DNA of 57,835 bases, the filler included, from Sphacelaria rigidula (Eukaryota), in the NCBI GenBank assembly GCA_964200075.2. It is 4 parts of 4 records of this genome, joined end to end, with 100 filler letters (N's around TTAATTAATTAA, not from the genome) between each part and the next. Parts side by side here need not be neighbours in the genome. Positions count along the whole stretch, not along the records: positions 1 to 14,391 come from CAXNAA020002276.1; 3 more parts are not named here. One strand, written 5' to 3'. Below are positions 2-42,389 of this stretch, in pieces. Positions within the stretch are counted from its first letter, which is position 1, and the number at the start of each line of letters is the position of its first letter. Under the pieces are notes generated by a model. That model did no database searches. It saw nothing but the letters and a program-made list of their open reading frames with translations, and was not told where the DNA came from. Both the position numbers and the translations under genes were made by a program.

Positions 2-2716
2 TCACATCTGGTAGGGTCTGTCTCCTCTGGCTTGAAGTTAGTTGCCAGTAAGGAAGTTCGACGGCGCAAATCCCGCCTTACGTCAGCGGGACGTCACTCT
101 ATTCATTTGTCTGATACATGTCACGGTATTATGGTCCCGACAGTTGGTTCCGGTAATTCAGTCAACCTCACCGTAGAGCCACGACAAACAGTCCCACCTA
201 ATTCGTCTCTAGTATCCAGCAGCGGTACCGTCGTACCGTCTGCACCGTCCACCCGTACCGTTCTACCGCATTGTCAGTCTCCTCGGAAGAAAAAGCCAAA
301 AGTAGATAACGAAGTATCACCGGGCGTGTCCACACTTGCCCCGGCAACAATCAGGCCGCCTGTAGCGCCTGATCCCGGTGGTACTGATTCTCTTACACCA
401 TGGTACACCTCCTCGCTGAGTACTCAGCGAGGTCCCCTGTCTCTTGCTTTTTCCTCAAAGCGTGTTCGCATTTCTGGATTTATTGGGCAAGTACCCGTCA
501 CGGATATCACAGTAGATACCGCGACTGATGTCTCAGTATGTTCTGCTTCTTGGTTGAAGTCAAATCCCATCTTGCAGAAATTACCACTGTCACCTGTTCC
601 CCCTGCAGCCATTTCCCTTCGTGCAGCAAATGGCTCACCGATACAAGTTGTAGGGTTCGTATCGTTTTCATTAACCCTTGGCAATGTCACCTGCCCAGTA
701 GAAGCGCTTGTCGTACCTTCGTTAGGCCCTGATTCGCTTTTACTCGACAATAACTGTATGTCCAAATTTGGTGCAAGTTTAGACTGGACAAATGAAACCC
801 TGTCTTTTTCAGCGAGCGGTAAAACTATTCCCGCCGTGCATCGTGTTCATGACTCCATTCTGTCTACCACCAGTCCTCATTCTACTGTAGCTGCAGTACA
901 CGCTGACGCTCCAGAAATCACCGTCACTTTGATGGAACGAGTTTCAGTAAGCCCTTGTCATGAGGCACTAGTATTGGCATTTACAGATTGTCGCCCTGTC
1001 CGCGACTGCACAGTCGTTGTTGAACCTCGACTTGTCACTGCAGACGAAATGTCCAGAGTCGATCGCCCTGTAGCTTTCGAGTCCTTAATCGTCGCTCGCA
1101 CCTTGTCTACCTGGTCAGCTGAAGATGGTTCAGTAGTAGTTCAAGTTGCCAATGCCGCATCTGAAACCGTCGCTTTACCGATCGGCTTAGTCCTCGGAAC
1201 ATTGTACACTGTCACTGTGGTTGATCCTGAGCATCTACACGTTAACGCGGTCGCCAAAAGCCCTTCTACTCCTGTTGAGTTGAAAAATGCTAAGCGCGAT
1301 CTCCAAGAACCATTGTCTACTGCTTTTCATGATTCCACTTTTAGTGCGGTTCAACAGAACAGTATTCGTGAACTGTGTGCCGAGTTTCGGCCTGTCTTTT
1401 CTTTGTCTATGCAAGAACTCGGAACGTGTACTGTCGCGGAAGCCACTTTTCCTGTCCCTGAAAACACAACTCCAGTCGACAAACCACCGTACCGTTCAAA
1501 CCCCCGTACTGCTGAGGCCATCGAGAAATGTGTCAAAGATATGCTCGAGTGGAAAATCATTGAAGAACGCCCCAGCGCATGGGGTTCGCCTTCATGTATA
1601 GTCGCGAAAAAAGACGGTTCACCTCGATTTTGCGTAGACTACCGCAACACCCTCAACAAGTATTTAATTCGTAAATCTTGGCCGCTCCCCAACATGGATA
1701 CGTGCCTTGATGCCATTGGTGGAGCTCGCTTCATCACTGTAGCAGATGTCATGTCAGCCTTTTGGCAATTACCGGTTGCAGCTGAGGATGTAGACAAGAC
1801 TGCTTTTACCACGTCATCTGGTAAATACGTTTTTTTACGAATGCCATTTGGTGTCATGTCTGCCCCTTGGTTGTACCAGCGGATGATGTCCGTAGTCCTT
1901 GGACATCTGGGACCCGATTCTGGGATCCTGACCTATATTGATGATATCCTTGTCATCAGTAACACCTTCGACGAACACCTCAAGTCCCTTCGTCTTATGT
2001 TCGCCGCTTTACAAGCAGCAGGTTTGACCCTGAAACCGTCAAAAATTCAGTTCGGTCCCAAAGAAGTCACATACTTAGGTCATGTCATTACCGCTGAAGG
2101 CGTCTCTATCGGTAAAGATCGTATCAAAGCCATCTGCGACCTCGAAACTCCTAATTCAATCAAACAACTTCGTTCAGTCTTAGGAATGGTGAATTTTGTC
2201 AGGCGTTTTGTCAAAGATTACGCCGATATCACTGCCCCGTTAGTCGCGCTCACAGGAAAAGGTTTTCAAAAACGAACCACGTTTCTGGACGCTTGGGGTG
2301 ATGAACAGTCCGCAGCTTTCGATCTCATTAAACGAGCGTTGACTACTGCACCAGTTTTGAAATTCCCTGATTTCTCGAAGGAGTTCGTTGTTCACACTGA
2401 TGCTAGTGAAGTGGCGCTTGCAGGATTTCTTGCCAACGCCACCCCTGACTCCAAGTCTTCAGACGATTTAAGCATCATCGCTTATTTTAGTAGACGCTTT
2501 TCCAAGTCTCAGCGTCACTATAGTCCAACTAACAAGGAATGTTGCGGTGTCGTTTCAACGCTCATGCACTTCCGTCCGTACTTGTGGGGTAGACATTTTA
2601 CTGTCTACACAGATCACCAGGCACTTTGTCATCTATATAGCATGCAGGATACCAGCAACCTCTTGTCACGCTGGTCGATTCAACTCCAAAGTTTCGATTT
2701 TACAGTAAAGCATGTA
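2..2716 (+). mobile_element. pol: Ty3/Gypsy LTR retrotransposon pol (aspartic protease, reverse transcriptase, RNase H); open at the contig start, truncated before integrase
   Basis: Stop-free frame from base 2 (track ORF 32..2734). Protease VDTATDVS; RT motifs FCVDYR, MPFG, YIDD; RNase H motifs VHTDAS, KEC, VYTDH; PR-RT-RH order. Homology ends at FDFTVKHV, exactly at the TA (2715-2716) preceding the pogo TIR. Confidence 0.95.
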
Positions 2717-2944
2717 CAGTCGTCCCCGCTTTAAGGACACTAATCTTAAGGAAACTCCCCGCTATAAGGACACATTTTTTTCCCAGAACATGGTGCCCCG
2801 CAGATATACAATAATAGGGGGGGTACCTTTTCCACTACGCGGCCCCCCCATTTTTTTGCGGGGCAGCACACCTGTACAGCTTGGTACAGCAGTACATATA
2901 GCATCGACAGCGGTCTGCTGCAGCCCGCACTACTGCGTGTGGGT

Positions 2945-5900
2945 ATGGAGAGATTCCTCCCATCTGCTGGCGGGTCGTCAGCTGCCGGCTTGAAGCCATG
3001 TGGCGAACCCACGTGCCAGTCAAAGTCTACTCTCGTGTCAGGGGTTCACCAGTGCCCGTGCGGGCGATTCATGCACGCGTTTTGTGGTCGGGGCATCGGA
3101 GAGGAAGGCTTCGGACAACAGAGAGAGTGCTCGGATTGCCAGAAGCGCAAAGGTGGAGACCAGGCTGGCAGCAGCATCAGTCCCATGGAAGTGGATGCCG
3201 AAGAAAACGAGCAGGACAGCCGCAGGTGATTTTTTGCATCAGTCCCGTCGGCGAAACTACTGCTGTTTGTACAGCAGCAGTAGCAGTTGCTCTCTGACCA
3301 CCAACGCCGCGAGCGTATGTACGTCGCGATACAGCGGGACAACTGCTCTACATTGTCCCGCCTCGTAACCCTGAACCGTTCTTTCACGCCTCGCGCCTGC
3401 AGACGCTGGCGTAGGAAAAATGAAGTCACCCATGTGCTGTAGCTTGTGGTGCTTTTCGACACAGAACCCGCGGAAGATATTGACCGCGCACTACTACTGC
3501 TGCTGTTGCACTTGTATCATATGATTGACATGTTTCTTCAAAAATGGCGCTGTGTTCATCCTCATTATCTGCTGGGCTCCCGAGTCACAAAAACCCCCCA
3601 GCAACATGATTGCAGCAGTGCGCCCTCCCCTTGCATACGCGCCTTTGTTGCTTCTTTAGTGACGCCGTTTCACCGCTGTGTGCATGTATGATGTGTGCTG
3701 TGCACATGACATGTTGCACACGAAACATTGCACCACAGCAGTTTGTCGGTACAGCAGTACATATCGTTGTACTTAATAGTTTTTATCTCGGCACGCTGTA
3801 CATCTTGGTTTTCGACTCAAGTACGTACTTCCTGATCTCCTTGCCACGCATTTAATTCTCCCACTTTATTCTGATGACCGTGCAGCACTACGCAACCATT
3901 TCGAGGGGAGGAGCCATCGGTTGGAGGAAAGGGGAAACGTCCCGCGGCTGATGCTGGCGTCGGCGGTAGCGCGGGGAAACGGGCTGCACCTGGTCGTGGC
4001 AGCAGTGCCGGCGGCAGCGCGGGCGGCAGCGCGGGATGGAGTTCCGGCGGCAGCATGGGCGGCAGTGCGGGCGGCAGTGCGGGCGGCAGCGCTGGCTGTG
4101 GCGCGAGCGGCACGGCGGGTGGCAGCGCTGGCGGCAAGGCGGGCCGCAAAGCGAGGCCCGGATCAGACCTCGGTCAGAACAAGCTCACAGTAAGGCAGCG
4201 ATTGGAAATCGTCCGGGCCGTCCAAGGCGGCCAGCAAAGGAGCAAAGTTGCGCAAGACTTCGGCGTGGGCAAGGCGTACATCACCAAGCTGATGAAGCCC
4301 GAGAGGATCGCCTCGCTCGAGAAGTCCCGTGACATGGAGCTCAACCTGGACGCCAAACGCACGCCAACGCCGGTAAACGCGGACCTGGAAGCTCGTCTGA
4401 ACCAGTGGATAAAGATTGCGCGACAACGATTTGAGGTAAGGATCACACGTCGTCCATATCCGTCACGATTGATTTTCTTACCAGTACATCCCTCGCCGCC
4501 TCGTTTCCTGTCTGTCAAACGGTAGTGTACGTTGTTTATGTGATGACGTGTTGCAGCAGGTAGATAGGTTGAGAGCCGCCTGACCGCTTGCATGGATTCC
4601 AACCGAAGCCCCACATCGCTCGAACGTCCACCGCTGTTGCTGCTGCTGCTGCTTCACGACTATGCAGACAACCAAGCTCGGGTTGAGCGGTCTCATGATA
4701 CAGACCCAGGCCACGAGGTTCGCGTCGGACATGAACGTGACCGACTTCACGGCGAGCAACGGCTGGCTACATCGCTTCCTCGGTCGCTACGGCTTCGCGC
4801 ACATCAACCTGCACGGGGAAGCTGGTGACGTGGACAGGGCGAAGGCCGAGAGGGAAATCGCGAAGATTCGGGAGCAGCTGGAGGAGTTTGACGTCGAGTT
4901 GATCTTCAACATGGACGAGACGGGGCTTTTCTACCGCTGCTTCCCGAGGGGCACGTACGTCACGAGGGCGGAGGGCGCGGCAGGAGTCAACAAGAAGACC
5001 GCGCGGGGATCGAAGGCCATGAAGGCCAAGGACCGATGCACTGTTGTCGCCTGCTGCAACACCACCGGGTCGCTGAAGGTACCGCTGGCCGTCATCCACA
5101 CGGCGAAAGACCCCATGGTTTTCCGCCACGTTCGCAAGCCACCTTGCCCCTACTACGCCCAGCAGAGTGCCTGGCTCGACTCTTCAATCTGCCAGCGGTG
5201 GTTTGACGAGGTCTTCGTCCCCTTCGTCAAGAAGAACACTGGGAAAAAGGTGGTTCTCTTGTGGGACAACTGCCCAGGCCACAAGATCAAGAACGACGAC
5301 CCGCAAATCGTCATCATCTTCCTGCCCCCCAACGTCACGTCCGTCTTTCAGCCTATGGACATGGGGGTCCTGTTTGCCCTCAAGAGCCAGTACAAGACGG
5401 AGATGGTGATGAGGCTGGCGGCCCTTATCGAGGACTGGAACACAGTACGTGCGCGCAAAATCCGAAGGTAAACACTGCTGTGTTTTTTTTTGGGGGGGGC
5501 GGCGAAAAAGTGATTATTTTTTTGTGACTGCAGGTTCCGTTTTTTTTTTCTTGTTAGGCGAGTGACAAGCTGTTGCATGTACTTTACGGTTTTGCAGCTG
5601 TAGACGAGTCCCATGCGACAGTAGTACTGCAACAGAGTCTCCGACAAATATATGCCTGCCGTACACCACATCCAGCGAAATCCACTCTCTCTCCTGGTGA
5701 TTGAAAACTCTGTTGATCATTGCGTCTTTTTTTTACTGTGTTCCTTGCATCTTTGTTTTGCAGGGGCTGCCGGGGCCTGAGCGACGCAGGCCAGGCAACA
5801 ATGCTGGATGTGACGGAGATCCTTTCGCAGAAGTGGGAGAGCTTCTCGGACCAGACTATCGTCAGGTGCTGGCTCAAGGCCACCATTCTCCCTCGTGAAC

Positions 5901-6478
5901 ACGAGGACGCGCTCAAGGGTAGAGACACGCGGCTGGACCGAGAAGACAAGGACGCGGCCGCCTTGGACGACCTTTGCGATATGGTCAAGAAGATGTCCAT
6001 GCCGGAGAGTGCCAAGGGCTTGGACGCTAGGTCCATGCCGCGATTGTTGTCGGACAACTTGTTCGTCGAGAGCGCCTCCGGCCTCACTGAACAAGAAGTG
6101 CGGAGCGCAGTGGAAACGTGGCTTAGTGTAGAGGACGATGAAGAGGTCTTGAGGGAAGAGGTAGAACTCGAGATGGAAGAGGTAACGGAGAATATGTCAA
6201 GAGTAGCCGTCGAAAACGACGCGTCCAGTGAAGAGGAAGACCAGGACGGTAGGCAAGAGTCGTGCATGAAATCTACGATTTCAGAGGCCGAGGTTCGCTC
6301 TCGTCTCGAGGATGTCCGCTCCTATTTGTACGCGAACGGAAAAGACGGCGAGTACAGCGAAACGGTGTACCTTCTTTCGAAGACTGTGCATTCGTTCACT
6401 CATGAAACTCAAGTCAAGCGAAGAGCGAAGGAGGGGGGTGAGGTGCAGGCCACTCTTCGGGATATGTGGGCGACGTAG
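2945..6478 (+). CDS. pogo/Tigger transposase, 4 exons, about 781 aa: C4HC3 zinc finger, GGSA linker, CENP-B-type HTH domains, DDE_1 catalytic domain (DD30D), acidic tail
   Basis: Exons 2945-3225, 3886-4435, 4668-5467, 5764-6478. All introns are GT-AG with matching phases (2,0,2); 2346 nt total, no internal stops. Motifs: LTVRQRLEIV..VAQDFGVGKAYI (HTH), FTASNGWLHRF, NMDETGLFY, LLWDNCPGH, FLPPNVTSVFQPMD. There are 30 residues between the second and third catalytic Asp. Confidence 0.92.
4008..4135 (+). repeat. 12-bp coding minisatellite (GGCGGCAGYGCG-type) encoding GGSA repeats in transposase exon 2
   Basis: About ten degenerate units translate as GGSAGGSAG.. in the transposase frame. Confidence 0.85.
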
Positions 6479-7184
6479 TTTTTTGTGTTTGAGGGCAACA
6501 CACTTGGCATGCCCACATTCGTTGTTTGGGATTTTTTTGCCTTTCTCGTGGAGTTAAATTTTAAATTTTGTTTTTTTTTTGTGTTTTTTCCTTTGGGGAA
6601 GAACGGTGTCCTATTTTCGGTGTATTTGCCCGATTTTTTTTACATATATATGTTGTACCGACCGTTTCCTAGTGTCCTTCTAAGGGGTCGACTGGGTTTG
6701 TTTGGTCCCCATGTGGCAGGTAACTTGCGTGTTCAGAGCTAGTTCCAACGAATTGATGTGCCTCAGGTGTGTTCGCGATATCTCGGGCATGATGTTCACC
6801 GTGAGGATGACGCCTTGACAATAATAAAAGCCTGCAGCAACACCAGCGCACTGCCGCACATTACAATCGATCGTGCTGCACTCCCGCGCGTCGGTGGTGG
6901 AGGGAAATTCAAAATGTGTTACAGTAGTATTGGAGTACTGTACTACAGCCGTAGTGTGGCGGCCTTCCAACGCGTGTTGTCGGAGTTTAAAGCAACACAG
7001 CAGCACAGCAGTAGTTTCGTGGTCGCATTCCTGCTTCAAATGCGCGTATTTTGACACATGTTACACCTCCATTGGCCACGGGGATGGTGAGTTAGTGGCC
7101 CCGGAATCTTAAGGACACTTCCCCGCGTTAAGGACACTCCAAAAAAAAAAAACGCGGTGTGTCCTTAAAGCGGGGTCGACTGTA

Positions 7185-7632
7185 GTTGAGTGTAGAAGGA
7201 AGTCGATGTACAGAAATGCACCTGTGGCAAAGCAGTGGAGAGTAGAAGTCAAAATAGTGGCAGCATGTGAACTATACTAGGAGGAACGGGGCATGTTTGA
7301 GGGGGGAAATGCGGAACGTGAACGAAGGTGGGATGAAATGGTTTGTTTGATACATTGAACAGTGGCAAGAGAACGATGGATACCCTACGAGAGAAGTGGT
7401 GGCCATAGATGGCTCACCAGAAGGAGGATAAGAGTTGTAAATATCGATGTGTGATATATGGAGAAAACGTGATGAGTGCCAAAATTTTGGATATGTCTCT
7501 ATTAGGAGTAGACGCGGTGCTCCGTTAGAAATAAATGCGTGGTCATTCGTCAAATGGCAAAGGCAAGCAACAAAAAAGTTGGACCCCCTTCCTCCCCCAC
7601 GGCATGCAAGGTCATGAGTACCTCCCCCCCCC
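7185..7632 (+). mobile_element. Decayed 3' end of a probable non-LTR retrotransposon with C-rich tails
   Basis: Broken reading QKCTCGKAVESRS(Q)IVAACELY resembles the C-terminal CCHC knuckle of LINE ORF2. The 3' motif GGTGCTCCGT..ATGCGTGGTCA..GGCAAGCAACAAA followed by a C-run recurs at 12498-12597 (+) and about 28610-28780 (-). Confidence 0.6.
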
Positions 7633-7662
7633 TCTCCCACTCTCTGTTTCTTTTGTTTTCAG

Positions 7663-7843
7663 ACGCAAGGTAGCTACAGCGGCCGCAATTTCCATTTTTG
7701 TCATCGCCAGTAATGCGGGGTCTGCGTCCGCGTTGTTTGGAGGCGGCAGGGGAAGGGCGTCTGCCCCTGTGGACACTCCATCCTTCGAGCAGCTTGCGAA
7801 GGATATTGAAGAGGACATGGTGAGGGTGGAGGGCATGATACAG
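7663..7843 (+). CDS. Isolated probable host-gene exon; hydrophobic stretch ending A-S-A, signal or thylakoid-transfer-peptide-like
   Basis: Polypyrimidine tract + TTTTCAG acceptor and CAG|GTGGG donor. Translation RKVATAAAISIFVIASNAGSASALFGGG..FEQLAKDIEEDMVRVEGMIQ. Neighbouring exons were not confidently located. Confidence 0.5.
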
Positions 7844-8229
7844 GTGGGCATTCAAAGGCGTGTTCTACTTTTTTTTTTTTTTCTCGGCTGGTTGCTGGCA
7901 CTTACGTACTAGGGTGACTGCGGGTTATTGTCGCTGTTTCCCCCTTCTGTTGACAAGGACAAATTTTCAGGTCCCCCATCCATAGAGGCCTCGAATCCCG
8001 ACAGGAGCTGTCTTTTTTTTTTTCAAACACAGTATGGTTTCCGTTGTTGAAAACATTAGGACCTGAGTGTTGTATCCCTTTCGTTTTTCCAGGGATGAAA
8101 TTCGACACAGTGCGGGAGTTCCGAACAAGCTTGCTCGAACAACCGTTGCTGCTTTCAACGACGATCTGACTCGAAATTTCGAGCAACAAATGGCCCAAAT
8201 TCCCCCCCCCCCCTATCGTAGGATGACTC

Positions 8230-8355
8230 TCTGTTTCTTTATGTCTTCACCAAGTGTTTCAGTTTTGATTTCCTTGGGTACGTCTATCATGAGACCACGG
8301 ATGGACCCCTGGGGGGGTTAGTCGAAGTGCGACAAGCAATCAATCAAATCAAACA
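8230..8355 (+). repeat. Dispersed repeat ending in (AATCA)n-like tail; probable SINE/LINE 3' end
   Basis: Core GGGTACGTCTATCATGAGACCACGGATGGACCCC..AGTGCGACA. Related copies at about 13105-13210 (-), 24290-24390 (+), 24910-25040 (-) and 25250-25370 (-). Confidence 0.6.
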
Positions 8356-8467
8356 CGGCCAAAATCAGCACCAGCTGTCTATTTTCTAATATACCGAGTC
8401 AGTCACGGGCCGCACCGGGGCACATTTTTATGCAGATCTGAAAAATACGCCTCGGGCTAACAGTTTT

Positions 8468-8655
8468 GCGTGTGTGTTGTCGTCCCATATATTCTGGGCG
8501 CCGGTCTACACCTTTCGGTATAAGTGGGCGTACCAGCCGGGGTCACAAAGGAGGAAGATCAACACGAGAGCTTTTATTTTTTTGTTCGACTTTGGTACCC
8601 CGCCTCCCTTCTGCGGTGCTTGCCTTTTTATCTTTTTTTTTATCGCGAGAGGCGT
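8468..8655 (-). mobile_element. 3' portion of the tRNA-derived SINE family
   Basis: Reverse complement matches 35690-35871 (AAGGCAAGCACCGCAGAAGG..TGTGACCCCGGCTGGT..GACAACACAC). Confidence 0.8.
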
Positions 8656-9339
8656 GAAAGCTGTAAATACTCAACCACATGTCGTTCCAAAAACAGGACC
8701 TCTCGAAATGCACACTTTTCCGTTGCCAGAAACAAATCCAGATTCACCCCGCCGAGAGAGGACGGGGGTTGATTGAAAGTATGACCGGAAATGATGAAAA
8801 TATGCTCTACTTTTTTTTGTCACGTTTTCATCAATTACCCGTTGCTCCCCTGTTTTTTTCGACGTACCTGCTTCCTGCACTCTGCCCTCAGCTGCGGCAG
8901 CGGCCTGATCGATCGACCTTGCTTGATTGTTTGTTGTGCATTTTCTGATGTCCTGACAGTCCAGCATCGTGGCTTCAGTCCAGCATCGTGGCTTCATACA
9001 CATGTTTTGTCGTTTGATGGAACTAAATCGTGTCAATACTCCGTGTTTTTGAGTAACTGATGCTTGACAGGCAAGTCATTGCTTTCAATAAGTTGGTCAA
9101 CTTTGTATTTTGTGTGTGCGTGTTTTTTAGGGGGGGGGATGTGCTGTGGCGGAAACCCCCTGTATATGTCCCTCCCTTCCTCCCTCGCTCGTTCTCACTA
9201 ACCCCCTCGACTGCAACGACTTGGCGCGTAGGACCGAGAAGAGCAATTGTCCGACGTGGCTGATGAGATGGAAACATTTTTATCGGGTGCTGCGGGTGAA
9301 GCGGAGGACGCTCCGTCAGAGGGGATGGACGACTTCGCC

Positions 9340-9877
9340 GCGGCTCTTGGCCAGGACGACGAAGCGGGGGCGGTGTCGACCGCAGGTATGAGATATCCAC
9401 GAGGGACAAAATGGTGACAGTCTCTGTATGCGACACAGTATTACGCCGCTATGCTAGATACCACCCCCTGGAAACAACCCCAAGCACTTGGCCGGGACTA
9501 CGAGGCGGGGGCGGTGTAGACAGCGGGTATGACATGTCCATGCGCGGGCGAAGTGATGACGTCTCCGTATGCGACACAGTGTAAGACCCCTACGCGAGAT
9601 AACACGCCCTGAATACAACCCCGAGGTCTTGGCCAGGATGACGAGACGAGGGTGGCGTCGATTGCTGGTATGAGAACTCCACGCGCGGTTAAAGTGATGA
9701 AGGTTTTCGCATGCGACACAGTATAACCCCCCTTACACGCCAGATACCACCCCCTCTGAAGAGCAACGCCGAGCTTCATGGCCAGGATCACGAGGCAAGG
9801 GTAGGGTCGACCGCGAGTATGAGACGTTTACGTGTCAACGAAGTACACCCCCTCTGAAGAGCAACACCGAGCTTCAT
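9340..9877 (+). repeat. Degenerate tandem array of about 140-bp units inside the LTR
   Basis: Anchor (T/A)TGGCC(A/G)GGA near 9348, 9488, 9629, 9778; ATGCGACACAGT at the same period. A further partial unit (9843-10235) is interrupted by a MITE. Confidence 0.85.
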
Positions 9878-10163
9878 CAAAGGTTATAACTTATACACAT
9901 AAGTAATGCACTCGCTGGCATATTTGTCATCATTTGTGATACACAGACGGTGCAGTTGGGATTGTCTTCATGTATATTTTAGTGTGGGACACAATCGGAA
10001 CAGAAACAAGTGCACTACCTGTGTATATATTTTATATATATAACCTTTGCACCGTCTGTGGGTCACAGACGACTTATTTAATACAATTTTCATATATAAT
10101 TGAGTATTGGACAATCGGAACAGAAACAAGTGCACTAACTATGTGTATATGTCATAACCTTCG
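9878..10163. mobile_element. MITE with 8-bp TSD (P-element- or hAT-like)
   Basis: Imperfect TIR of about 35 bp (CAAAGGTTATAACTTATACACATAAGTAATGCACT / AGTGCACTAACTATGTGTATATGTCATAACCTTCG). TSD AGCTTCAT at 9870-9877 and 10164-10171. Empty-site paralogue GAGCTTCATGGCC near 9771-9783. Confidence 0.85.
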
Positions 10164-11834
10164 AGCTTCATGGCCAGGATCACGAGGCAAGGATAGGGTC
10201 GACCGCGAGTATGAGACGTTTACGTGTCAACGAAGCGGTAAAATGCCGAAACGGGACTGAGTAACTCAGGGAACACCAGAAAAATAACGTCTGCATGTGA
10301 ACTGTACACGTCCTCGACCGAACCCTTCGTAGGTGGAAGAGCCGCGGAATGAAAACACAAAACCACTGGATCTTTGCCCCCAAAACAACCACTATTCGTA
10401 TGATTGACACCGTGAGCGGGTAGACTTTCCGTTGTGTATTTCCGAAGAGACATGCGGGGTTTGAACGGTATGTGTGTTAAACGGGAAGTAGGCCGGAAAT
10501 AATCGATTCTGCGGGTGTCATGGTTGCTGTTGCTGGAAGACTCCAGGTAGCGCACGCGCCGACTACATAAAGTACTCAGTGTAGGCAGTCCACACCCGCC
10601 TGAAAAAAGGTGGACAGGGCAGTATAGAAAAGGCATTTGCGAAAAAGAACGCACGGTTAGGACGACTCAACTCGTGATTCAACTCATGTTCATCATATCA
10701 AGAAATAAATCATACTATTCGTACATCATTTGTAATTTATGCAGCTTCTCAGCTTGTGCGTGGTGCAGTATATCTCGAAGGTATCCGCTTCCTACCTTCC
10801 ATGAATACCGGGGTAAATAATGGGCACATGGTCAACCCTGCACTGCAAATTTGAATACATCGATGGTATATGTCACGCACTTCTCACTGTCATGAGTCGG
10901 GAACGTCCTGTATAACTTGCTTGGCCAAATCGTTGAAGGTGAGCGCCCGTACATTTTTCCCACCTTTGGGCTAATGCGGGACCAACAAGTCGTACAGGTT
11001 GAATCCTCATTTCCGATGAGCCCTGAACCATGCGTAATTTTCTCACAGCTGTAATGCACGCAAGATGACTGCGCTGCATATGTGTTATCCACCCTCGACT
11101 CAACGGACCAACGGTTCATACAGCATGACTGCTTGCGCGTCATGAGGAGTCGACTCGTATGAATTCTGATTCGTCCTAACCGTGAAAGAATGACGAGATG
11201 AGATGAACGCGTCGAGGTCTAGCCTAACCGAGTAAACACAGGTTTCGGTCGACGCACGCCCTTTTGGCGCACGGCCGTGTGAGGCGAGAATACTTGTATG
11301 TGAGTGTGGCACGGGTGCGGCACATATTGTCAATTTCTGTGCCCGCAGAATTCCGAGCGAAACCAATGTTTCCTGGTCCAAAATTGTTACTTTTTCGGGA
11401 CGAAACACGCGAGGATGTACATTTTCCAGACCAATGTTCATGACGTATTATTTTCATGAGTCACCGTCCAGTGGTCTGCTTTTGGTCCCTAAGTCCACGT
11501 ACCGCGATTTTGATCAAACTGCTGTTTGGTTGGTTGTTCGTCGCACATGAAGTGATCCCTGCGGAGTCTAGGCGTCGTTACAAGATACATGTGTCCAAGG
11601 AAGACAAGCCGGAATCACTCGCATCGCGCAGAAAACTCGAAAAAGTAGACACGTCGAGAAAGGTATACCAAACTCACGGTACTGAACAAAAAAACGGACA
11701 CCCAAATAAAACAAAAAAAGAAGAAAGGAAAGGAAAAGAGGGAATAATATGACAAGAACAAAAAATATAGTCCCCATACGAAGGAAAATGATCACACGTC
11801 GGACAGCTCATCAACACCACAAATATTACTTCTT

Positions 11835-12073
11835 ATTAGTCTGCGGATCCGGATCATAAGCTGGCTCATTTGGCCCCCTGTTCCCATGTTTCCTCCCTTC
11901 AGTGCTGGACACCGAGCACGCAGAGCAGTGCAAAGGTTGCGCTCTGGCTTCTCTGACCCAGCTGTCACGTAGTTTGTGTCTTTGGACCAACGGATCTGAT
12001 AGTACTCTTTGTGGTGGTGTGTTAGGTAGCTTATGAGCTGTCCGACGTATAAAAGTGATGATGATGATGATGA
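11835..12073 (+). repeat. Possible retroposed repeat ending in a (GAT)n tail
   Basis: GC-richer block ending abruptly in (GAT)5-6. Single copy in the window and no TSD seen. Confidence 0.3.
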
Positions 12074-12497
12074 TACAAGAGTGGAACATGACAGCGACAT
12101 GTTTATACTACATGTAAATTTGCTGACCGGTTGGTTGATCGTGGTGCATTCACTGGTCCGCTACGAATCATAATCCAGTCGCTACGAACCATAATGTAGC
12201 CGTGGTCACACAAGATGTACGTGGAGATGGTAGCACGCTTTCAAAATTATATTTTGCACCCACAAAATGGTGCAGGAGCAGCAGAAAGTACCGTGGGTAT
12301 CAGTTGCAGATGTTTTCCCGTGCATCCGGGATCAACCTTTGGTAAGGAGAGACTTCGGGACCGGGCAACGGTGCAGGGCCCGACCGACATGCGTCTCCCC
12401 CCGCCCCCTCCTCGTTTTGAGGGAATCGGTGTAATCGCGGGTACAATTCTATACCCCAGTTCGAAGGGGTTACCCCCCCCCACACACACACACTGCA

Positions 12498-12597
12498 GTG
12501 CTCCGTCTCGAAAGGGATGCGTGGTCAATGGTCAAACGACGAAGGCAAGTAACAAAAAAGTACGCCCCCCCCCCCCATCTCCCCTCCCCCCCCCCCG
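12498..12597 (+). mobile_element. Poly(C)-tailed retroelement 3' end, type A
   Basis: GTGCTCCGTCTCGAAAGGGATGCGTGGTCAATGGTCAAACGACGAAGGCAAGTAACAAAAAAGTACG(C)n; homologous to 7516-7600, 22560-22615 and 28610-28700 (-). Confidence 0.7.
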
Positions 12598-12764
12598 ACG
12601 GTGTGTAACCCGTGATTGTCTGTAGAAGTGGCGATACCAGAACATGAAGCAACTCATTCGAGGGTGTCATCCGTTTGCAAGATGATACGTAGTAGTAAGC
12701 ACACTTCGGGCCGGAAAATCGTGGCAGGATGCAGCTCACCCTTCATGCGACTCACCGAACATGT

Positions 12765-34200: not shown

Positions 34201-37200
34201 TGATGACGAAGCACTACTGATGGCATTTCCAGAACTATTGTGCTGTGGACATTCACTCCGCTTGCGTGCTAGGTCACAAGCATGATTCGAAGCAGAATCC
34301 CTTGGTATCTATTTCTCCATTCACGACGAGATCGTTCAGAGTGTGGTACAGTTGTGATAGTTGCGCTTTGATCATCCTCGTTCAACAGGATCAGCGAAAC
34401 GCCCGCGACTGGTGAATTTCTCGTGGAACTGAAACAAGGTTTGTGGGGGCTACTGCAAGAGTCGCAACTAGTGCCCCCGGCGGGTATGTGGTCGGCCACA
34501 AATTTCGATGAATCCTCACGACAAGCCACTGCTCACAACCAAGCAAATGGTACCACGCCAGCGAGACGCACGTTCTCAGGAGAATGTGAAGGCTCGAACG
34601 GCCATGCCCCAGACCACAGAGAACTCTCGCGGGCGGCCCTTAGCCGGAAGATCGGTGACCATGTTCTCGACACAACCGCACCACTGCCCTCGGTAACGGA
34701 GGGCTACACATGCCACTCGCTCTCTGTCAGTCGTCGCCGTGTGGTGTGTCTCGCAGCCGCAACCGGAAAATTGAACGTATATGGCATCAAAGAAGTCACG
34801 CCTGAAAACGAGGGAAAGAGCGACAAGGGAGAGGAACGGGGAAAAGTACATCCCACCGACTATCTAAAACAGCAGAGAGGGGAGAACGATCCACGCAGGT
34901 TATCATCTTGGACGATTACACCACACGTAAAGGGCGAGGCCGCCACGTGCATGTGTCTGTTACCCGAAACTCCGTCTTGTGCGGCCGGTGCCTTGGACCG
35001 CGTGGTCGCCAGCGCGCGAGCACAATCCGCTGGCCTGCGCTTCTTTCGTGGGCACGAGCAAGGTACAACTAGGCCCTGCAGCAGCGACCATACCACCGGC
35101 GGACATCGTTGGGATGAGTGCGGTGCAATCGAAGGCGGGTGGGGAAGGACGGGCGAAGGAGGGAACACCAAAAGTCATGGGCGAGAGGCTATTGCTGCAA
35201 TTGGGACTTCGCATGGGGGCGTGCAGCTTGTCGAGATTGTCGTGGATGGCTCGGTGAGACTTCCCGGCGAAAGGCGGGGAAAAGGACGATGATGGGGGGT
35301 AATTGGTGGCAAAAGTCTGTACACGGACCATCGTTAGACGTACTTTGCCTCTCAAACACCCAGAATAGATTGGTTCGCTGATGAAACTACAGAGGAAAGG
35401 GGGAGCGGAGGGTGCGCCGCTCATATATTCCAACCTCGTCTCTTTTCTAATCCTTCTTCTACTTCGACAAGTGAACGTCTGTTTCGATCTACAAATATTA
35501 ATGCTACACTGAGTTCTGACCCCCGGTGGCTCAGTTGGTAACTTCGAAAGCTTCTGACGGTTGGGCTGTGGGTTCAAATCTCGGAGCGATCTGGGATTTT
35601 TTTTCACACCATGCCCAACAATGGAGAGCGACAATGTCGTGGGTACACAAAATTCGACTTCACGGTCGACGAGGGAAAGGGACTGCTGAACCCCTCTCGC
35701 GAACAAAAATAAAGGCAAGCACCGCAGAAGGAAAGTGGAATACCAGAAAACAAAGAAAGCAGACAAAAAAACTCCTGCGTTAACCTTCCTCCTGTGTGAC
35801 CCCGGCTGGTGCGCTCACATATACCGAAAGGTGTAGACCGCTGTCCAGAATAGATAGGACGACAACACACACTGAGTTCTGACCGTTGCGTCGCGCTCTT
35901 GAACCAACCCCTCGGGCACACAGACGCTGGTCTACCTTGAGGGATTATTTGCTGGTCCCATCACGGATATATGGTACTGTCACAGCGCCATCAACGCTAC
36001 CACCACTACTCGTGACGCTGTTGCAGAAGGGAAAACGAAGACAAACCCAGGGAATAGATCGGGACGCCTGGTGTGCATGGGCCGTGACACGGCAGGGACG
36101 ATGACGATCAAGGGTCTCGCACTTTCGCCGTCATTTTCACAAGTCTTTGTCATGCGCTTGATGGAGGACCCGACCTGCGTATGTGTTGCGAGCAGGCGGC
36201 TGATGCTGGCAACTGGTTACGCGGATGGAACGGTGACTGCAACACGCTTCGAGGGAGACAGGTGCGACAAGTCCACGCCCTAGTATCATTTCGAACACCA
36301 TGTGGTAGAATCGAGAGAAAATGAGTATTGGAACCGATTTTATCGATGTATCGAACACGGTACGATGTAGCGTATCATATCGATGTTTCGCAGCGATACC
36401 GACAATTTGCTGCTACTTACTGGCAGTAAACATCCCATATATTCCTGTGCTGTAGTCACTATTCAGCGAATAAATAGGTCGAGTACGGTCGAACTTGTGC
36501 TCTCGCCTGACGTCGAACAGCGCAACCACTATTATTCTCGGGATAGATCGGTCGTGATAGTATCGGGCGTTTGCCGGCGCCGATCTGCCGACATGTACAG
36601 CACCCTCCAATCCTACCGATACACCACTTCGTGGAATTCCGGATTTTGTTCTGAAATAATTACTTCTTTCACAATGGTGAGGAAGGTCAAGACCGATCGG
36701 ACAGATTTTAGGGCATAACATATCAAGGGAATGTTGACGGACGATTTATTGCGCAGTGTTCCCGATTTGGGTAGAGTCCCCGTGAAATATTCCGATAGTA
36801 GTGCACATGTTGGTTCGCTGCCCAGGGTGCATGAGATCCAGAGCGCGGAGTTCACGGGAAAGCATACCACCAGCATCGAGACAATTGCGATCAGCGAGCG
36901 ATATCGCTGTATTGCTACTGGGAGTGTAGACGGATACCTCAATATCTGGGACTTGAACGGCCTACATCTCCACACAATACATCTCCAGGTGTGTCAACCA
37001 CGCATCTTCAACACCCAACTAGTATTCCATGGGTCAGGATAGTAAAGTTGAGTCGCAGCGCTTAAAGTGACTAATAGCGACTGATCCCTGCAACCTCTCG
37101 TCAAGCCCAATAACAGTTCATATATCTTTCAAAATGTAATGCCAGCAAACAAGTGTTGGCAGTCAAAGGTATACGCTTGTGTACTAGAACGCTTCGAACC

Positions 37201-40200
37201 CGCTGCCTCGTATTGCATGTGGACCGTGCAGCACTCGAATAATAGCAAAATACCGGCCACTGCGAACTGCCCTCCTTCTCCCGTCGTTGACCCACAAGCC
37301 CACGTATCCTCGTCGAATCCGTCAGGAGCCGGCGCATGCGGTGGCCTTCGCGGATGTCACGGGCCAACTCGTAGTCTCGCGAGGTTCGGGAATATACCGC
37401 ATACGTCGCGGCAGGTGGTGCCCGCTCGGTCAGCTCATAGCCGTCGAGCGCGCCGATCGACGGCATCACACGCGATCTCAAGGTTTCAGCGGATTTTCAC
37501 AAACCTCGGTTCACGTAGCAGAAGAAGAAGCCCGTGCCCCACCCCGCCCACGTCAGGCAGACGACATTAGTCGAGTTACCTATTCGTCGGGCGAAGCTTC
37601 AGACGGGAGGAAGGAACAAGCGAGTCGAGAAGGGGATCCGCAGGTGGTGGGGGGGGGGCGTCCGCAGGTGGGGGGGATTTGGTCTAAGCTTGAGGCTGGT
37701 GATGTCTCGGGTACAAAATGCAAGAAATATATGGCGGTGGATACTAAGGATGAGATTACCGTCGCTCAAAAGAGTGAAGCAATAGTGGATTATGATAGCT
37801 GCTACCATGCGCCACCACGGGGACGACGACGGGATCTACCTCAAAGTTCGGAGCTGGTGTCCAAAAAGGAAGAATTGCCGGATTGCGGGGGCGATGGGGA
37901 AAGCAGACAAGAGGTCGTGCGGTGTTCCAGTGGAGCACGGCAGGACGTGCCATCAACATGTAAAGGAAATATAGATGTGGAAAATGGGACATGTATTATT
38001 TCCACCTCCGTCATGGGTGCAGTCATCTGGCGTCCGAAAACGTGTGTCGGACGGGGTGGTCTTGTGGACGGTGGAGAAAGGACTCCGATGTCGCCAAGAG
38101 CGGTCAGCATCTTGGATCGTATGGTCTCTAAAGTTCTGTCGATGCCGGCTCCTCTGAGCACACACGCAACAAAGGTGGGGTGGACGATAAAAACGATGAT
38201 GGCGTCGGAATACTGGCAACTTGATTGACGATCGGCTCACCTCTTCCGTATTGTAACACTGGTAGTGCTCGTCGAGAAAAACATCCTGAAACGACCTTAA
38301 TGCGACTCTCACATGTTGGTTATCAATACACGTATGTGCTGCTGCAACTTCTAGGATGCTGACGTAGTCTTGTGCTTAGAAGTCATGCCGCAGCCGATAG
38401 TATGGCGTTTCTGCTGTTCAGACACGTTTGCGCTGCAGTACGGACTAGAGGAATTCCTGATCATCACCCTATCATGAGTACTACCACATGAAAAGAGGCG
38501 ACCCTCATAATTATCCGTAGAGGACGCATCACTTTTTTTTCAGATTGGCGATACCGTGAGATGACTATACATGCTTCCTGAACAGGAGGTCCCAGCTTCA
38601 AAGTCAGGTCTCGACCAACGCGACCGATAAAGCAATTCCCAAGATTGAGGGGGCAAGAACACAGTCGTAAAATTGCTGGGGAGAACAGAAACTGGTGGAG
38701 GACCGGCAAGCAGAGTTCATAAACTCAAGGAGAAACTCTCCTGCAAAGGGCTTATTTTTTGGCGGTCCAATACACACGCAAGAGGCGTGCCAAAAAAAGG
38801 AGTAGAAATATCCTCACCGCCACAGTAGTCGGCGGAAAAGATGATATCTACAAACCTGCTCTCGTGAAGGAACTCACGAAAATGCTCATAAGGGGTGATG
38901 TAGATACTACCAGATTGAAGGGGGAAGGTTCCTCTCCACTCTATACTCTAGTCACGGTGCCCTTAACCGTTTTATCGCCTGCATCCTCCTGGGATCCTGA
39001 CAATCTGGCCCGGAGGATGGTGATTTCATAGGCGAGGAGGTTGCAGCAGGTCCCCTTTCGCGTTTCTTCTTCACCAATAGGATCGCAGCAGTCGAACCTA
39101 GTTGAGCAGCTGAGTTGGGGTTTGGTTGCCCTCTACCATACTCCGTCTCATCTCCGCAAGTGCTCAGAGCGAACAGGATGGCTGCGCCCTGTACCCCTTT
39201 GTGTCTCGCTACAAGCTGGGCCAGCCTTACATGGATTTGAGCCCTGACATCAATATATCATCGATGCAGAGGGGTTAGGCCGTGATTCGCACATCGTATT
39301 AATCGCCCGGTCAAGGGGCAGATGCCCATCTGCTCAAAACCCCGCCAATGTATTCTCTTGTAATAGACGTCATGTTGAGTATTTCTCATGACAGTCCGGC
39401 GATATCTCCATTGTAAAGTCTATACAAAATCCAACTGATCAGCGGATGATCATGATCTTTAGTATGAATCCTCTGAAGCACGGGAAACGGTCGACACCTT
39501 TACCTTCACCTAATCTGTTATCTATGTAGCGACATGACGCACATGATATCCCATACTATATTTAGTCAAAATATTACGAGCAGAGGCACTAAATACCCCA
39601 AGTCTAAAACATGCGCATAGGTTATGAGAATTGAGCTTTAAAATCTGGGACGGAGTATCGTACGAGAAAAATGAAAAAAGAGCTTGGGAACTTCTTTTCT
39701 ATTCCTTTTTATAGCTTATGAATGTTTTTGTGAAAAATAGATATTGTTTTTTGTCCGTAGCTCTGTTACTCAGCTCAGTTTATCATGGAGAACAGCAAGG
39801 GAATACTGAAAACAAAACACAACTAGGCCCACTATTTATTTTTCGTGTGTTGAGGACGTTTTTGTGAAAAATAGTCGCTGTTACACGTAAACATCCTCAA
39901 CTTACGAAGGAGACGCCCTCAACTCACAAGTAGAGAACACTCAACATGCCGCAGATTCGGTATGGAGATCCGCTAGAAAATAATTAAACAAAATGTATTT
40001 TTGGAAACTTGACATATTTTTCATGAGTCAGGGACGTTTTTGTGAAAACAGAAATTAGTTTTTTGCCCTTAGTTCGTACGAAAAAGTCTCAAGGTTCCAA
40101 AATTTCGTTCTTGCTCTTGTGCCCGAGCAATTCTGCATATAAAAATTTAGAGTGCGACTCTCATGACGGAGGTGAGAATTTGCCTGCAATCAACTACAGA

Positions 40201-42389
40201 TCCGCCGTTTCTAGACTTTCCCAGCTCGTAACGTTCTTGTCATCGCTTTAAACAGCGGAGATGCATATGCGATTGCCAAACAGCCACTGGTGGTGTGCAG
40301 ATATCACACGGAAAGGGCACGCGGCATGTACGTCGCAATGTCCCAGCGGGTGCGGGACCCCTTGTTCACATGAAGGTGTTGTCTCTCCCGCCGCTTCCGC
40401 CGAAAAAACAACTTCGAACGCCTGTCAGGGGGGCGGAGGATAAAGCGACCTGCAGGCGCATGGACGCTGAAGGGGTTTAATCCTGTGGCAGCTTCCCTTG
40501 ATTTTGCGTATGATCATGTATGCTATAGATCGACGTGGGGTATGATGCCTGTCAGCGTCCTCCGCTCACAACCGCGGGTGACGGCTGCCGTACACCATCT
40601 ATATATGCCGGTTACTCTCTACAACGTCTCGGAGTGAAAGATTAATCAAATCCAACGCTATGCGAACCTTCCTCACGTGCACGGCTTGTCTTTTTATCTC
40701 AAGCCTGGAACAGGGAAACGTGTACAAGGGACGTTCAATGACATGGATGGACCAAAACGTGCGTCGCCCCAAACACCACTGGTGGCGTCTCAACCCCCAG
40801 CTGACCCGGATGCATCCGGTACACCAGCAACGCGGCCGATCTTGACCACCGAGAGTCTCCACAGCGGCGATATCACGGAGGACGAGGTCGGCATTTCCAC
40901 AGAGCACAAAATGGATGTCGTGACGACGGTAATACCGAGCAAACAACTAGAATCTAGTAAGCGAAATTGTGCGGAAAGTGACGGAATACACCCCAGGCCG
41001 AAACAGCATGCTCATCAGCCCACCTCGTTGCTTCGGTGTCCGCGTAAATATTTTACCACGCGTTGTACTTCCGAGCACTCGTACCTTCGCGTTCCGGGTG
41101 GAGCCAAAACTACTATTAATAATACTGCCAGCGACGGGCGTGTGGTGGACATTTTTGTGGAGGGAAAGAGGCCCATCAAGACGGTGGGTACGGAGGAGGA
41201 CGGGGAGGAATGTCGCCTGAGTACCACTATAGCTGCTGCTGCTGCTGCTGCTGCTACTACTTCGAGGCCGGCGAGAGCAAAGCTCGTTCGATCTGTTTTC
41301 ATTCCTTGTGGAGCAAAAACGGCACCTGAGTACTGCTGCACCGACTCAGGGGAATCGCCTGCCGCTGTTGCACAGGGAGAATTGCAGCAGCAACTACATG
41401 GCGGAGATTTCTCTGGGGATGCGATGGATACTATCTCATTTGACAAAAGGAGTCTCCACCCCAGCGTTGGTGACTGCAGCAGCCAACACGCCGGTCTACC
41501 ACACGCACCCAGCCTGGAGCCCCCTCATCCACCGAACTGGCATGTTGGAGACACGATCGGCTCAGTTGCTGACCACGATTTCGCCTTTCTCGGTTCATCA
41601 CAAAAATGGTGGGACGATACCGCTTCCCCCAGTTTCCCGACGCGCGGAGATCCTGCGGTAATGCTGGCATCGGGCAATGTGGGGGAGACTGCGGCAGAGC
41701 CGGTAACCATTCGCAGATTACTTGGACAACACCCTAAAGAAAGAATGGCATCCCTGTCGTCGGGCACTGGGGGGGCACACTGTGCGCGCAGGGGGCAACG
41801 AGCTACAGCAGTGGCAGATACCATCTCTACACGAGGGGGGGGGCGGGGTACGCTACAAAGTTGTATGAAGAAACAGTTGGGAGAGAGAACGGAAGCCGAG
41901 CGAAGATCCATGCTGCCAGCTCCTGTGGATTATGCGAAAGACAGCACCCTCGCTAAAGATAGGGCGACTGATTCGTCGGCGGCAGTAGTGAGACCCACGA
42001 AGGTTTCAATGTCGTGCGGCGCGGTGGGTGGCACTAGGGGGTCCGACGTGTTGTCGCCGTCAGGATGGAATGCCTATGAATCAGATGCTCTTTCGCGAGC
42101 GGTGCCACCGAACCTAGGTCCGGCTACCACAAGTTCTAAACCGAGAGGAAGTAAAGGGCACAATGAGCAGTGGAACACCTTGACCTCCACGGGACGAGGA
42201 ACGTTTTTCCCCGTGAGACCTCAGTATCAACGGAGGACGTCCTCCGACCGTGGGCAGATGTTCGAGGGTGGCAACAAGCGGGTCTTCGGCCGGACAGGGC
42301 GCATACACACACCTATGTCTGTGCCGATGAGGGTTGCTGCTGTGCGGGGGGATTCCCCGTTGGTCACTCCTGAGAACACTTCTTGTTGA
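31281..42389 (+). CDS. Large multi-exon WD40-repeat protein with a low-complexity C-terminal region; family unassigned, 5' end and some exons uncertain
   Basis: WD-like exons at about 32053-32240 (EIISGGSNGCLVW), 33227-34010 (ILTGGGNGIVKIW; GHSGAITGL..IVSAGVDKTLRLWD; possible in-frame intron 33517-33654), 34389-35253, about 35986-36261 (LATGYADGTV), about 36711-36988 (KHTTSIETIAIS..IATGSVDGYLNIWD) and about 37326-38173. Long terminal ORF 40677-42389; its attachment to the gene is inferred. Splice 32240/33227 is phase-consistent. Confidence 0.7.
32385..32675. mobile_element. MITE with GAG..CTC termini and 4-bp ATAT TSD (Sola-like)
   Basis: TIR GAGTAATGCTACGGTAGGGG / CCCCTACCGTAGCACCACTC; ATAT at 32381-84 and 32676-79. 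Related copy at about 24457-24713. Confidence 0.65.
32680..32947. repeat. GGATGTCCATCT-type minisatellite within an outer TIR element (about 32348-32947)
   Basis: Repeats of GGGATGTCCATCT / GGATATCCATC. Outer inverted match TGCATTATCGTCCAACCTTCATTTGGGAT / ATCCCAGATGAAAGTTGCGCGATCATGCA. Confidence 0.65.
35522..35871 (+). mobile_element. Full-length tRNA-derived SINE (about 350 bp) with TSD, in an intron of the WD40 gene
   Basis: A box TGGCTCAGTTGG (35527), B box GGTTCAAATC (35571), (CA)n tail. Direct repeat ACACTGAGTTCTGACC at 35506-35521 and 35869-35884. Confidence 0.9.

Follow-up and report, generated by a model that had tools for sequence, protein, structure and literature searches.

Does a zinc-finger exon that precedes the helix-turn-helix (HTH) exon of a pogo-type transposase belong to the working protein, and what might such a finger do? 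The locus that raises this question lies in a 57,835-nt stretch of DNA, filler included, from the brown alga Sphacelaria rigidula (GenBank assembly GCA_964200075.2), which consists of four parts of four records joined end to end and is here called the window. Judging from its ends and its coding content, the segment at 2717-7182 (4,466 bp) is reasonably likely to be an intact, autonomous pogo/Tigger-like cut-and-paste transposon, inserted at a TA within the pol gene of a retrotransposon. With high confidence, we read its gene as a four-exon transposase in which a predicted N-terminal Znf_SCAND3 finger exon stands before the HTH domains and the DDE_1 core.

The transposon and its transposase gene

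The features of the element are listed below with their positions in the window; TIR denotes a terminal inverted repeat.

2715..2716, unstranded: TA target-site duplication, left, directly outside the left TIR
2717..2740, plus strand: left TIR with a CAGTC... terminus, 24 nt, pairing with 7159-7182 with one mismatch
2724-2740: first copy of the 17-nt motif CCCCGCNNTAAGGACAC, part of the left TIR
2757..2773, plus strand: second, subterminal copy of the 17-nt motif, a putative transposase binding site (motif search)
2945..3225, plus strand: exon 1, ATG start, 93 codons and 2 bases, N-terminal zinc finger (translation; Pfam PF23663)
2999..3139, plus strand: finger core from C19 to C65, with eight C4HC3 ligands, an invariant H35 and GxGxGEEGxGQ (translation, alignments)
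3226..3885, plus strand: intron 1, GT..AG, 660 nt, with GT at 3226-3227 and AG at 3884-3885; identical junction in gene model P0001
3886..4435, plus strand: exon 2, with basic patches, a Gly/Ser/Ala linker and an HTH of CENP-B_N type at about 4178-4297 (Pfam, frames)
4436..4667, plus strand: intron 2, GT..AG; the junction ...ARQRFE/TTKLG (slash at the splice) matches P0118
4668..5467, plus strand: exon 3, with HTH_Tnp_Tc5 at about 4683-4802 and the DDE_1 core at about 5028-5429 (Pfam; NMDETG, WDNCPGH and QPMD)
5468..5763, plus strand: intron 3, GT..AG; the junction ...RKIR(R/K)/GCRGLSD (second slash at the splice) matches P0006 and P0011
5764..6478, plus strand: exon 4, C-terminal acidic region, stop codon TAG at 6476-6478; same end (..RDMWAT) as P0006
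7121..7137, plus strand: right-end subterminal copy of the 17-nt motif, facing the TIR copy (inverted-repeat and motif search)
7159..7182, minus strand: right TIR, 24 nt, one mismatch to the left TIR
7183..7184, unstranded: TA target-site duplication, right, read from the sequence

The TIR sequence is CAGTCGTCCCCGCTTTAAGGACAC, and the termini are of the CAGTC-GACTG type. The TIR pattern has two matches in the window and none in 100 shuffles, and its 17-nt core has four matches, two per end, where none is expected. Such paired motifs at each end have the usual look of transposase binding sites and are putatively assigned that role.

The four exons have GT-AG borders at all three introns and no stops, and they encode a transposase of 781 residues. 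At the first junction the AG at the end of exon 1 and the C at 3886 form a serine codon, and the frame is open through 3887-4435. The preliminary description had placed exon 1 inside the TIRs and spliced it in phase to the HTH exon, and the TIR positions and the serine codon across 3225/3886 bear this out. In the Pfam scan, DDE_1 was matched at E 5.1e-32, HTH_Tnp_Tc5 at E 1.3e-9 (38.3 bits) and CENP-B_N at E 1.9e-4, the last with 21.4 bits just over the cut-off of 21.2. The catalytic motifs are present, and the second and third aspartates are 30 residues apart by hand count. Between the finger and the remaining transposase lie about 90 low-complexity Gly/Ser/Ala residues, encoded by an array of 12-nt period at 3998-4148. 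The long linker to a CENP-B-type HTH that had been described earlier was therefore correctly recognized. The residues just behind the finger are basic (QKRK, KGKRP).

These features place the element among the pogo transposons: a TA duplication, TIRs, a DDE_1 core with a DDD triad, and the pairing of CENP-B_N with HTH_Tnp_Tc5, which the excerpt of Gao et al. 2020 (PMC7386202) gives for pogoR and Tigger. Elements of the Tigger/pogoR type share the TA duplication, the short TIRs, both HTH domains and the DDD core, whereas the window element has an extra N-terminal finger exon, a long Gly/Ser/Ala linker and three introns. Its 30-residue aspartate spacing lies outside the values given in the same excerpt for Passer, Fot (35) and Mover (36).

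The finger exon recurs in other copies of the family. The search with exon 1 gave 24 hits, and the 10 named ones are all either Ectocarpus proteins or proteins of Pylaiella littoralis (98% and 96% identity). In P0009, P0010, P0011 and P0020, a finger exon of 58-65% identity is joined to linker, HTH, Tc5-domain or DDE_1 sequence, and P0010 and P0011, with an exon 1 identity of 60-65%, keep all eight ligands. A more distant case is P0100, a protein of 700 residues read from a single open reading frame (ORF) of a 3,854-bp contig; its finger spans residues 19-65 and its DDE_1 domain 315-498. Identity to the window copy is 49% for the finger and 43% for the core, and the first knuckle C-x-E-P-x-C is shared; a region search with its N-terminus found only P0100 itself. 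Together with P0001, these proteins uphold the view that the finger belongs to the transposase and is present in other copies of the family.

Among 62 long relatives of the DDE core (E <= 1e-10), the finger was found only in the brown-algal P0011. P0122, which at 47% identity is the nearest complete relative from outside the brown algae, has no finger, and its CENP-B_N domain is preceded by 38 residues. The excerpt of Gao et al. 2020 gives five types of N-terminal DNA-binding motif for pogo, all of them HTH, and zinc fingers for the domesticated POGZ only (PMC7386202). In the part of Dupeyron et al. 2020 seen, zinc fingers are given for the ciliate TBE elements only (PMC7325037). The relatives and the two surveys, as far as their text goes, thus agree with the statement that typical pogo transposases start directly with HTH domains. 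No fusion of pogo with a PHD finger is described in the titles and opening abstract lines of the literature matches listed. Extra N-terminal domains (zinc fingers, KRAB) are noted in the Gao et al. excerpt for POGZ and POGK, which are domesticated pogo transposases (PMC7386202); these are immobile host genes with C2H2 fingers, whereas the fusion described here lies within a mobile element with TIRs and involves another type of finger.

Family and fold of the finger

The translation of exon 1 reads C19-x4-C24-x12-C37-x-C39-x4-H44-x2-C47-x14-C62-x2-C65 and contains GIGEEGFGQ, exactly the C4HC3 spacing with EEGFG that had been reported for it. Pfam assigns the finger to PF23663 (Znf_SCAND3, the SCAN domain-containing protein 3-like zinc finger) at E 3.8e-7, with residues 32-69 matching profile positions 1-41 of 50. 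The match is more than chance because its score of 30.4 bits exceeds the curated cut-off of 27. By this profile the finger is not unclassified and is a member of PF23663, a family for which our literature search found no paper naming either the accession or Znf_SCAND3.

A HMMER search of 1.84 billion representatives found 92 proteins at E <= 0.001, 27 of them at E <= 1e-10. PF23663 was matched by 48 of 52 aligned relatives. The next families among the 52 are weak and all zinc-binding: C1_2 in 10, zf-HC5HC2H in 5, RING types in 3 each and PHD in 2. Across 42 relatives, H35, C37, C39, H44, C47, C62 and C65 are invariant, and C19, C24, G48, G52, E54, G55, G57 and Q58 are nearly so. The core H-x-C-x1-2-C-x4-H-x2-C-x10-18-C-x2-C occurs in 76 of 117 collected proteins; 23 of these have C-x4-C as the first knuckle, 37 have C-x2-C, and in 16 there is no upstream pair or the pair is cut off. 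The finger of the window thus has the signature shared in PF23663, H-x-C-x1-2-C-x4-H-x2-C-G-x-G-x-G-E-E-G-Y/F-G-Q-x3-C-x2-C. It differs from the commoner members in its first knuckle, which is C-x4-C (C-G-E-P-T-C) and not C-x2-C, with C-x-C as the second pair, and in standing at the N-terminus of a pogo transposase.

Other carriers suggest that the finger is a promiscuous module, joined also to piggyBac, hAT-like and OTU proteins. In P0077 it is N-terminal and joined to DDE_Tnp_1_7 of the piggyBac type. In P0086 it stands with SAP and B-box-like matches on one side and an OTU cysteine protease on the other; the portion of the source seen describes OTU domains on Ginger1 and Helitron proteins (PMC2836005). 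A C-terminal finger accompanies hAT dimerisation and DUF659 matches in P0099 and P0112, and the finger occurs with zf-BED in P0106 and P0113 and with SWIM in P0072, all of these partner matches lying below the Pfam cut-offs.

A metagenome profile search with a small alignment yielded 20 short loci, in which 52 of the 148 ORFs of at least 90 residues were scanned. PF23663 was found in 12 ORFs at 12 of the 20 loci; no other family and no added architecture appeared among the scanned ORFs. On two of the environmental contigs, a long ORF with no Pfam match lies directly downstream of the finger ORF (L002:835-2166, 444 residues; L004:747-2252, 502 residues). These ORFs could be unrecognised partners of the finger.

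The predicted structure points to a cross-brace fold. The model of the whole of exon 1 has a mean predicted local distance difference test (pLDDT) score of 72, and the domain model (residues 15-72) has 88.7 and consists of two short hairpins and a C-terminal helix. When the domain model was compared with 48,161 chains by VIA-align, 11 chains reached Z >= 2, all of them cross-brace fingers. Ten are FYVE or FYVE-related, several being Rab-binding modules (Slp4, RIM, Slac2-a, RUFY, Rubicon, endofin, EEA1, Hrs and others), and one is a RING. PHD chains scored Z 2.0-2.2 with the whole-exon model, and none is among the 11 of the domain model. FYVE-related and PHD fingers likewise have eight ligands in cross-brace order, and the model, with its two hairpins and C-terminal helix, may resemble them. 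FYVE domains carry a basic motif that binds phosphatidylinositol 3-phosphate, and PHD fingers carry a conserved tryptophan; neither was seen in the finger sequence. A PDB sequence search with exon 1 alone returned only a RING (E 1.7). Language-model clusters nearest to exon 1 are PHD, with a score of 0.91 and 166 shared features, and a look-up leaving out the PHD families gave only RING/PHD-like clusters below 0.8; both are leads only. Taken together, these comparisons suggest a cross-brace finger that binds two zincs and is of the FYVE/PHD/RING kind.

The description of the finger as PHD-like therefore stands in part. The C4HC3 order and some marginal PHD matches in the PDB agree with it, whereas exon 1 has no match to the Pfam PHD family (PF00628) at E <= 1, and its weak structural neighbours are mostly of the FYVE type. 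Structure prediction, which had been suggested as a check, returned a cross-brace fold but only weak fold matches, with FYVE-type chains leading.

A cysteine-rich N-terminal domain on a brown-algal transposase has been published before. TcMar-2_Ec32 of Ectocarpus (Genome Biol 2025) is, in the portion of the article seen, a Tc1/mariner element whose transposase has an N-terminal cysteine-rich EsV-1-7 domain (PMC12477816). Like the window element, it is autonomous, spliced and 4.4 kb long, belongs to Tc1/mariner, comes from a brown alga and has a TA duplication. Its termini are CCGTA-TACGG, whereas those of the window element are CAGTC-GACTG, the type given in the same text for the non-autonomous TcMar-N5_Ec32 (1,344 bp, 26-bp TIRs; PMC12477816). 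The comparison with TcMar-2_Ec32 is one of description and termini, and the two N-terminal domains may yet prove to be one and the same. The finger was also considered as an EsV-1-7 domain, for which the literature excerpt gives the Pfam model PF19114. This was ruled out, as exon 1 has no PF19114 match at E <= 1, and PF19114 is not among the 25 families most matched (of 64) by the 52 finger relatives. The suggestion of an undescribed pogo lineage accordingly needs narrowing. No finger was found in the nearest pogo relatives outside the brown algae, but the finger belongs to PF23663 and the Ectocarpus precedent, as far as its text was seen, is already in print. What appears to be new is the Znf_SCAND3 finger on a pogo transposase, and the brown-algal element that encodes it is probably active.

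Related copies and the insertion site

Other copies are consistent with recent movement of the family. A 4,347-nt DNA contig of another run is identical to the window over 2786-7132. Contigs of two runs from related organisms have a joint from 2741 to 7145, and a joint from 2815 to 7103 occurs in a run that also contains the identical full copy. These joints skip 4.2-4.4 kb and mark internally deleted derivatives with the same ends, resembling miniature inverted-repeat transposable elements. In P0002-P0004 (Ectocarpus models and an environmental ORF), exon 1 (..SPMEV) runs in frame directly into a part of exon 4 (VKKMS..), which would be a deletion derivative encoding the finger and the acidic tail without DNA-binding or catalytic domains.

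The linker array appears to be a hotspot of length change and breakage, because indels of relatives (a 12-nt deletion and a 36-nt back-step) and a frameshift in P0001 fall in it. Against relatives of about 95% identity, indels begin at 3230, in intron 1, and the single coding indel among 12 of the 39 indel rows is a 12-nt in-frame deletion in this array. An intact copy, deleted derivatives and broken copies would together be the pattern of a recently moved family, and the element is probably active. The earlier argument for recent activity, drawn from a stop-free reading frame and near-perfect TIRs, agrees with these observations: the copy looks intact, and an identical contig and deleted derivatives are found in other runs.

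The element interrupts a retrotransposon, of which the upstream part is as follows.

2..2716, plus strand: retrotransposon pol ORF (RVT_1, RT_RNaseH_2), interrupted where the RNase H domain ends

This ORF is open from the first bases of the window and stops 32 codons past the insertion (7185-7280). Nine plus-strand ORFs at 7535-12622, out of 25 on both strands (all of at least 90 residues), were scanned, and neither an integrase nor any other Pfam match was found in them. The host had been called a Gypsy element. The upstream domains support a retrotransposon, and with no integrase seen in the nine downstream ORFs the label Gypsy holds only in part; the retrotransposon could be a truncated one, or something other than a Gypsy. 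Elsewhere in the window, seven further ORFs of at least 200 residues lie at 22336-44813, for example 40638-42389 (583 residues) and 37188-38228 (346 residues).

Possible roles of the finger

We propose the following mechanism. The HTH domains would bind the 17-nt motifs, two per end, and the DDD core would cut and paste at TA. The finger would have an accessory role: it would dock the enzyme onto a host partner that is conserved, either chromatin or a different nuclear protein, and not onto the ends of the element itself. We put forward this docking role tentatively, and as somewhat short of probable. The shared surface on which it would depend consists of H-x-C-x1-2-C, MH-x-FCG and G-x-G-E-E-G-Y/F-G-Q. 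A host partner is preferred to the element's own ends because one invariant surface is common to transposases of the pogo, piggyBac and hAT-like kinds, which have unrelated ends and DNA-binding domains of their own, because the best-kept loop is acidic (G-E-E-G), and because the finger sits on a flexible linker whose length varies.

Several observations weigh against our interpretation, some of them touching the fusion itself and others the fold or the docking role. No run recorded as RNA contains this stretch, and no 3225/3886 splice joint was seen in the reads of four runs. Runs X1 and X5, which had been suspected of being RNA, have even intron coverage and behave as DNA of relatives of about 95% identity. 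Run X16 gave four small contigs, three of them in exon 3 and the 3' untranslated part and the fourth matching the end of exon 4 over 45 nt, which cover neither exon 1 nor any junction; the reads of the four runs are silent on expression either way. The predicted junction rests on gene models, phase and P0100. Between exon 1 and the relative in X1/X5, eight of nine changed codons are non-synonymous, with no ligand altered, and at this distance no signal of purifying selection is visible beyond the ligands. In the pooled brown-algal copies, identity is 75% in the finger and equally 75% in the preceding 18 residues, with 53% in the tail. A quick maximum-likelihood tree built from 63 cores groups the five brown-algal rows in a single clade (Shimodaira-Hasegawa-like approximate likelihood ratio test 100) and places P0100 outside it, with unstarred branches between; as to one or two gains of the finger-pogo fusion, this tree neither supports nor excludes a single origin. 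For the fold, Foldseek returned nothing at E <= 0.001 with either the whole-exon or the domain model (all E >= 1.7). The 11 structural neighbours are weak (Z 2.1-3.1, 38-49 of 58 residues aligned), the best FYVE-type ones having a root-mean-square deviation of 2.7-3.5 over 45-49 residues at these same low scores. The best full-register matches of the family profile in the PDB are the PHD fingers of ATXR5 (E 0.036), AIRE (0.052) and WSTF (0.059), which are marginal. Finally, the cysteine-rich cross-brace domain at the C-terminus of piggyBac binds the DNA of its ends sequence-specifically, according to the part of the source seen (PMC5861402). It too is an accessory zinc finger outside the DDE core, differing from the present one in being C-terminal.

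The missing splice joint and the mostly non-synonymous changes would suit an exon 1 that lies outside the working transposase, either as a captured or fortuitous upstream ORF joined on by gene predictors or as a short alternative product. Several brown-algal models without exon 1 (P0118, P0119 and P0120) point the same way. However, P0118 and P0119 start within later exons and, by these starts, are truncated models and not finger-less proteins, whereas P0120 begins in the region of exon 2 and lacks the finger exon. The finger and DDE_1 of P0100 share one uninterrupted ORF, the splice is canonical and in phase, and subfamilies of 60-65% identity keep all the ligands. We regard such an artefact as highly improbable. 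The piggyBac precedent supports a different role, in which the finger binds DNA as part of the transpososome and recognises the subterminal 17-nt repeats or the structure of the end DNA. Two 17-nt motifs per end could serve more than one DNA-binding module, and the basic residues right behind the finger would be suited to DNA contact. The arguments given above for a host partner, namely the presence of the same finger on transposases with unrelated ends, the acidic loop and the linker of about 90 residues, count against end binding, and we consider it unlikely; DNA binding of a non-specific kind may occur.

A special case of host docking is a strict PHD finger that reads histone tails and steers insertion to particular chromatin. 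The ligand order, the ATXR5, AIRE and WSTF matches and the language-model lead all favour it. However, PF00628 is matched by just 2 of the 52 relatives (best E 0.022) in addition to the lack of a match in exon 1 at E <= 1, FYVE-type chains and not PHD fingers lead among the neighbours of the domain model, and a single insertion in a retrotransposon is uninformative on target bias. A true histone reader is, in our estimate, very unlikely. Docking on a host partner in the broader sense is thus the role that we retain. It can be extended, as a possibility that we ourselves hold doubtful, to the whole family. Znf_SCAND3 may be a portable docking module that eukaryotic DNA transposons of at least three to four superfamilies have passed among themselves, namely pogo, piggyBac, hAT-like and OTU-carrying proteins. 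The acidic loop G-E-E-G-Y/F-G-Q of this module would grip a single, universally conserved partner in the nucleus, for example a surface of a histone or a factor of repair or replication, tethering its carriers to chromatin and biasing their insertion site or regulation.

Accessory domains are how transposases and integrases choose their landing sites, and few are known for pogo outside domesticated genes. A conserved finger across several transposase superfamilies would point to a common host contact that is apparently unstudied. If this is true, the pogo family of brown algae would offer a live and intact system for testing docking by Znf_SCAND3. The intact copy and the deleted derivatives also make the element a candidate active DNA transposon in brown algae, where genetic tools would be useful.

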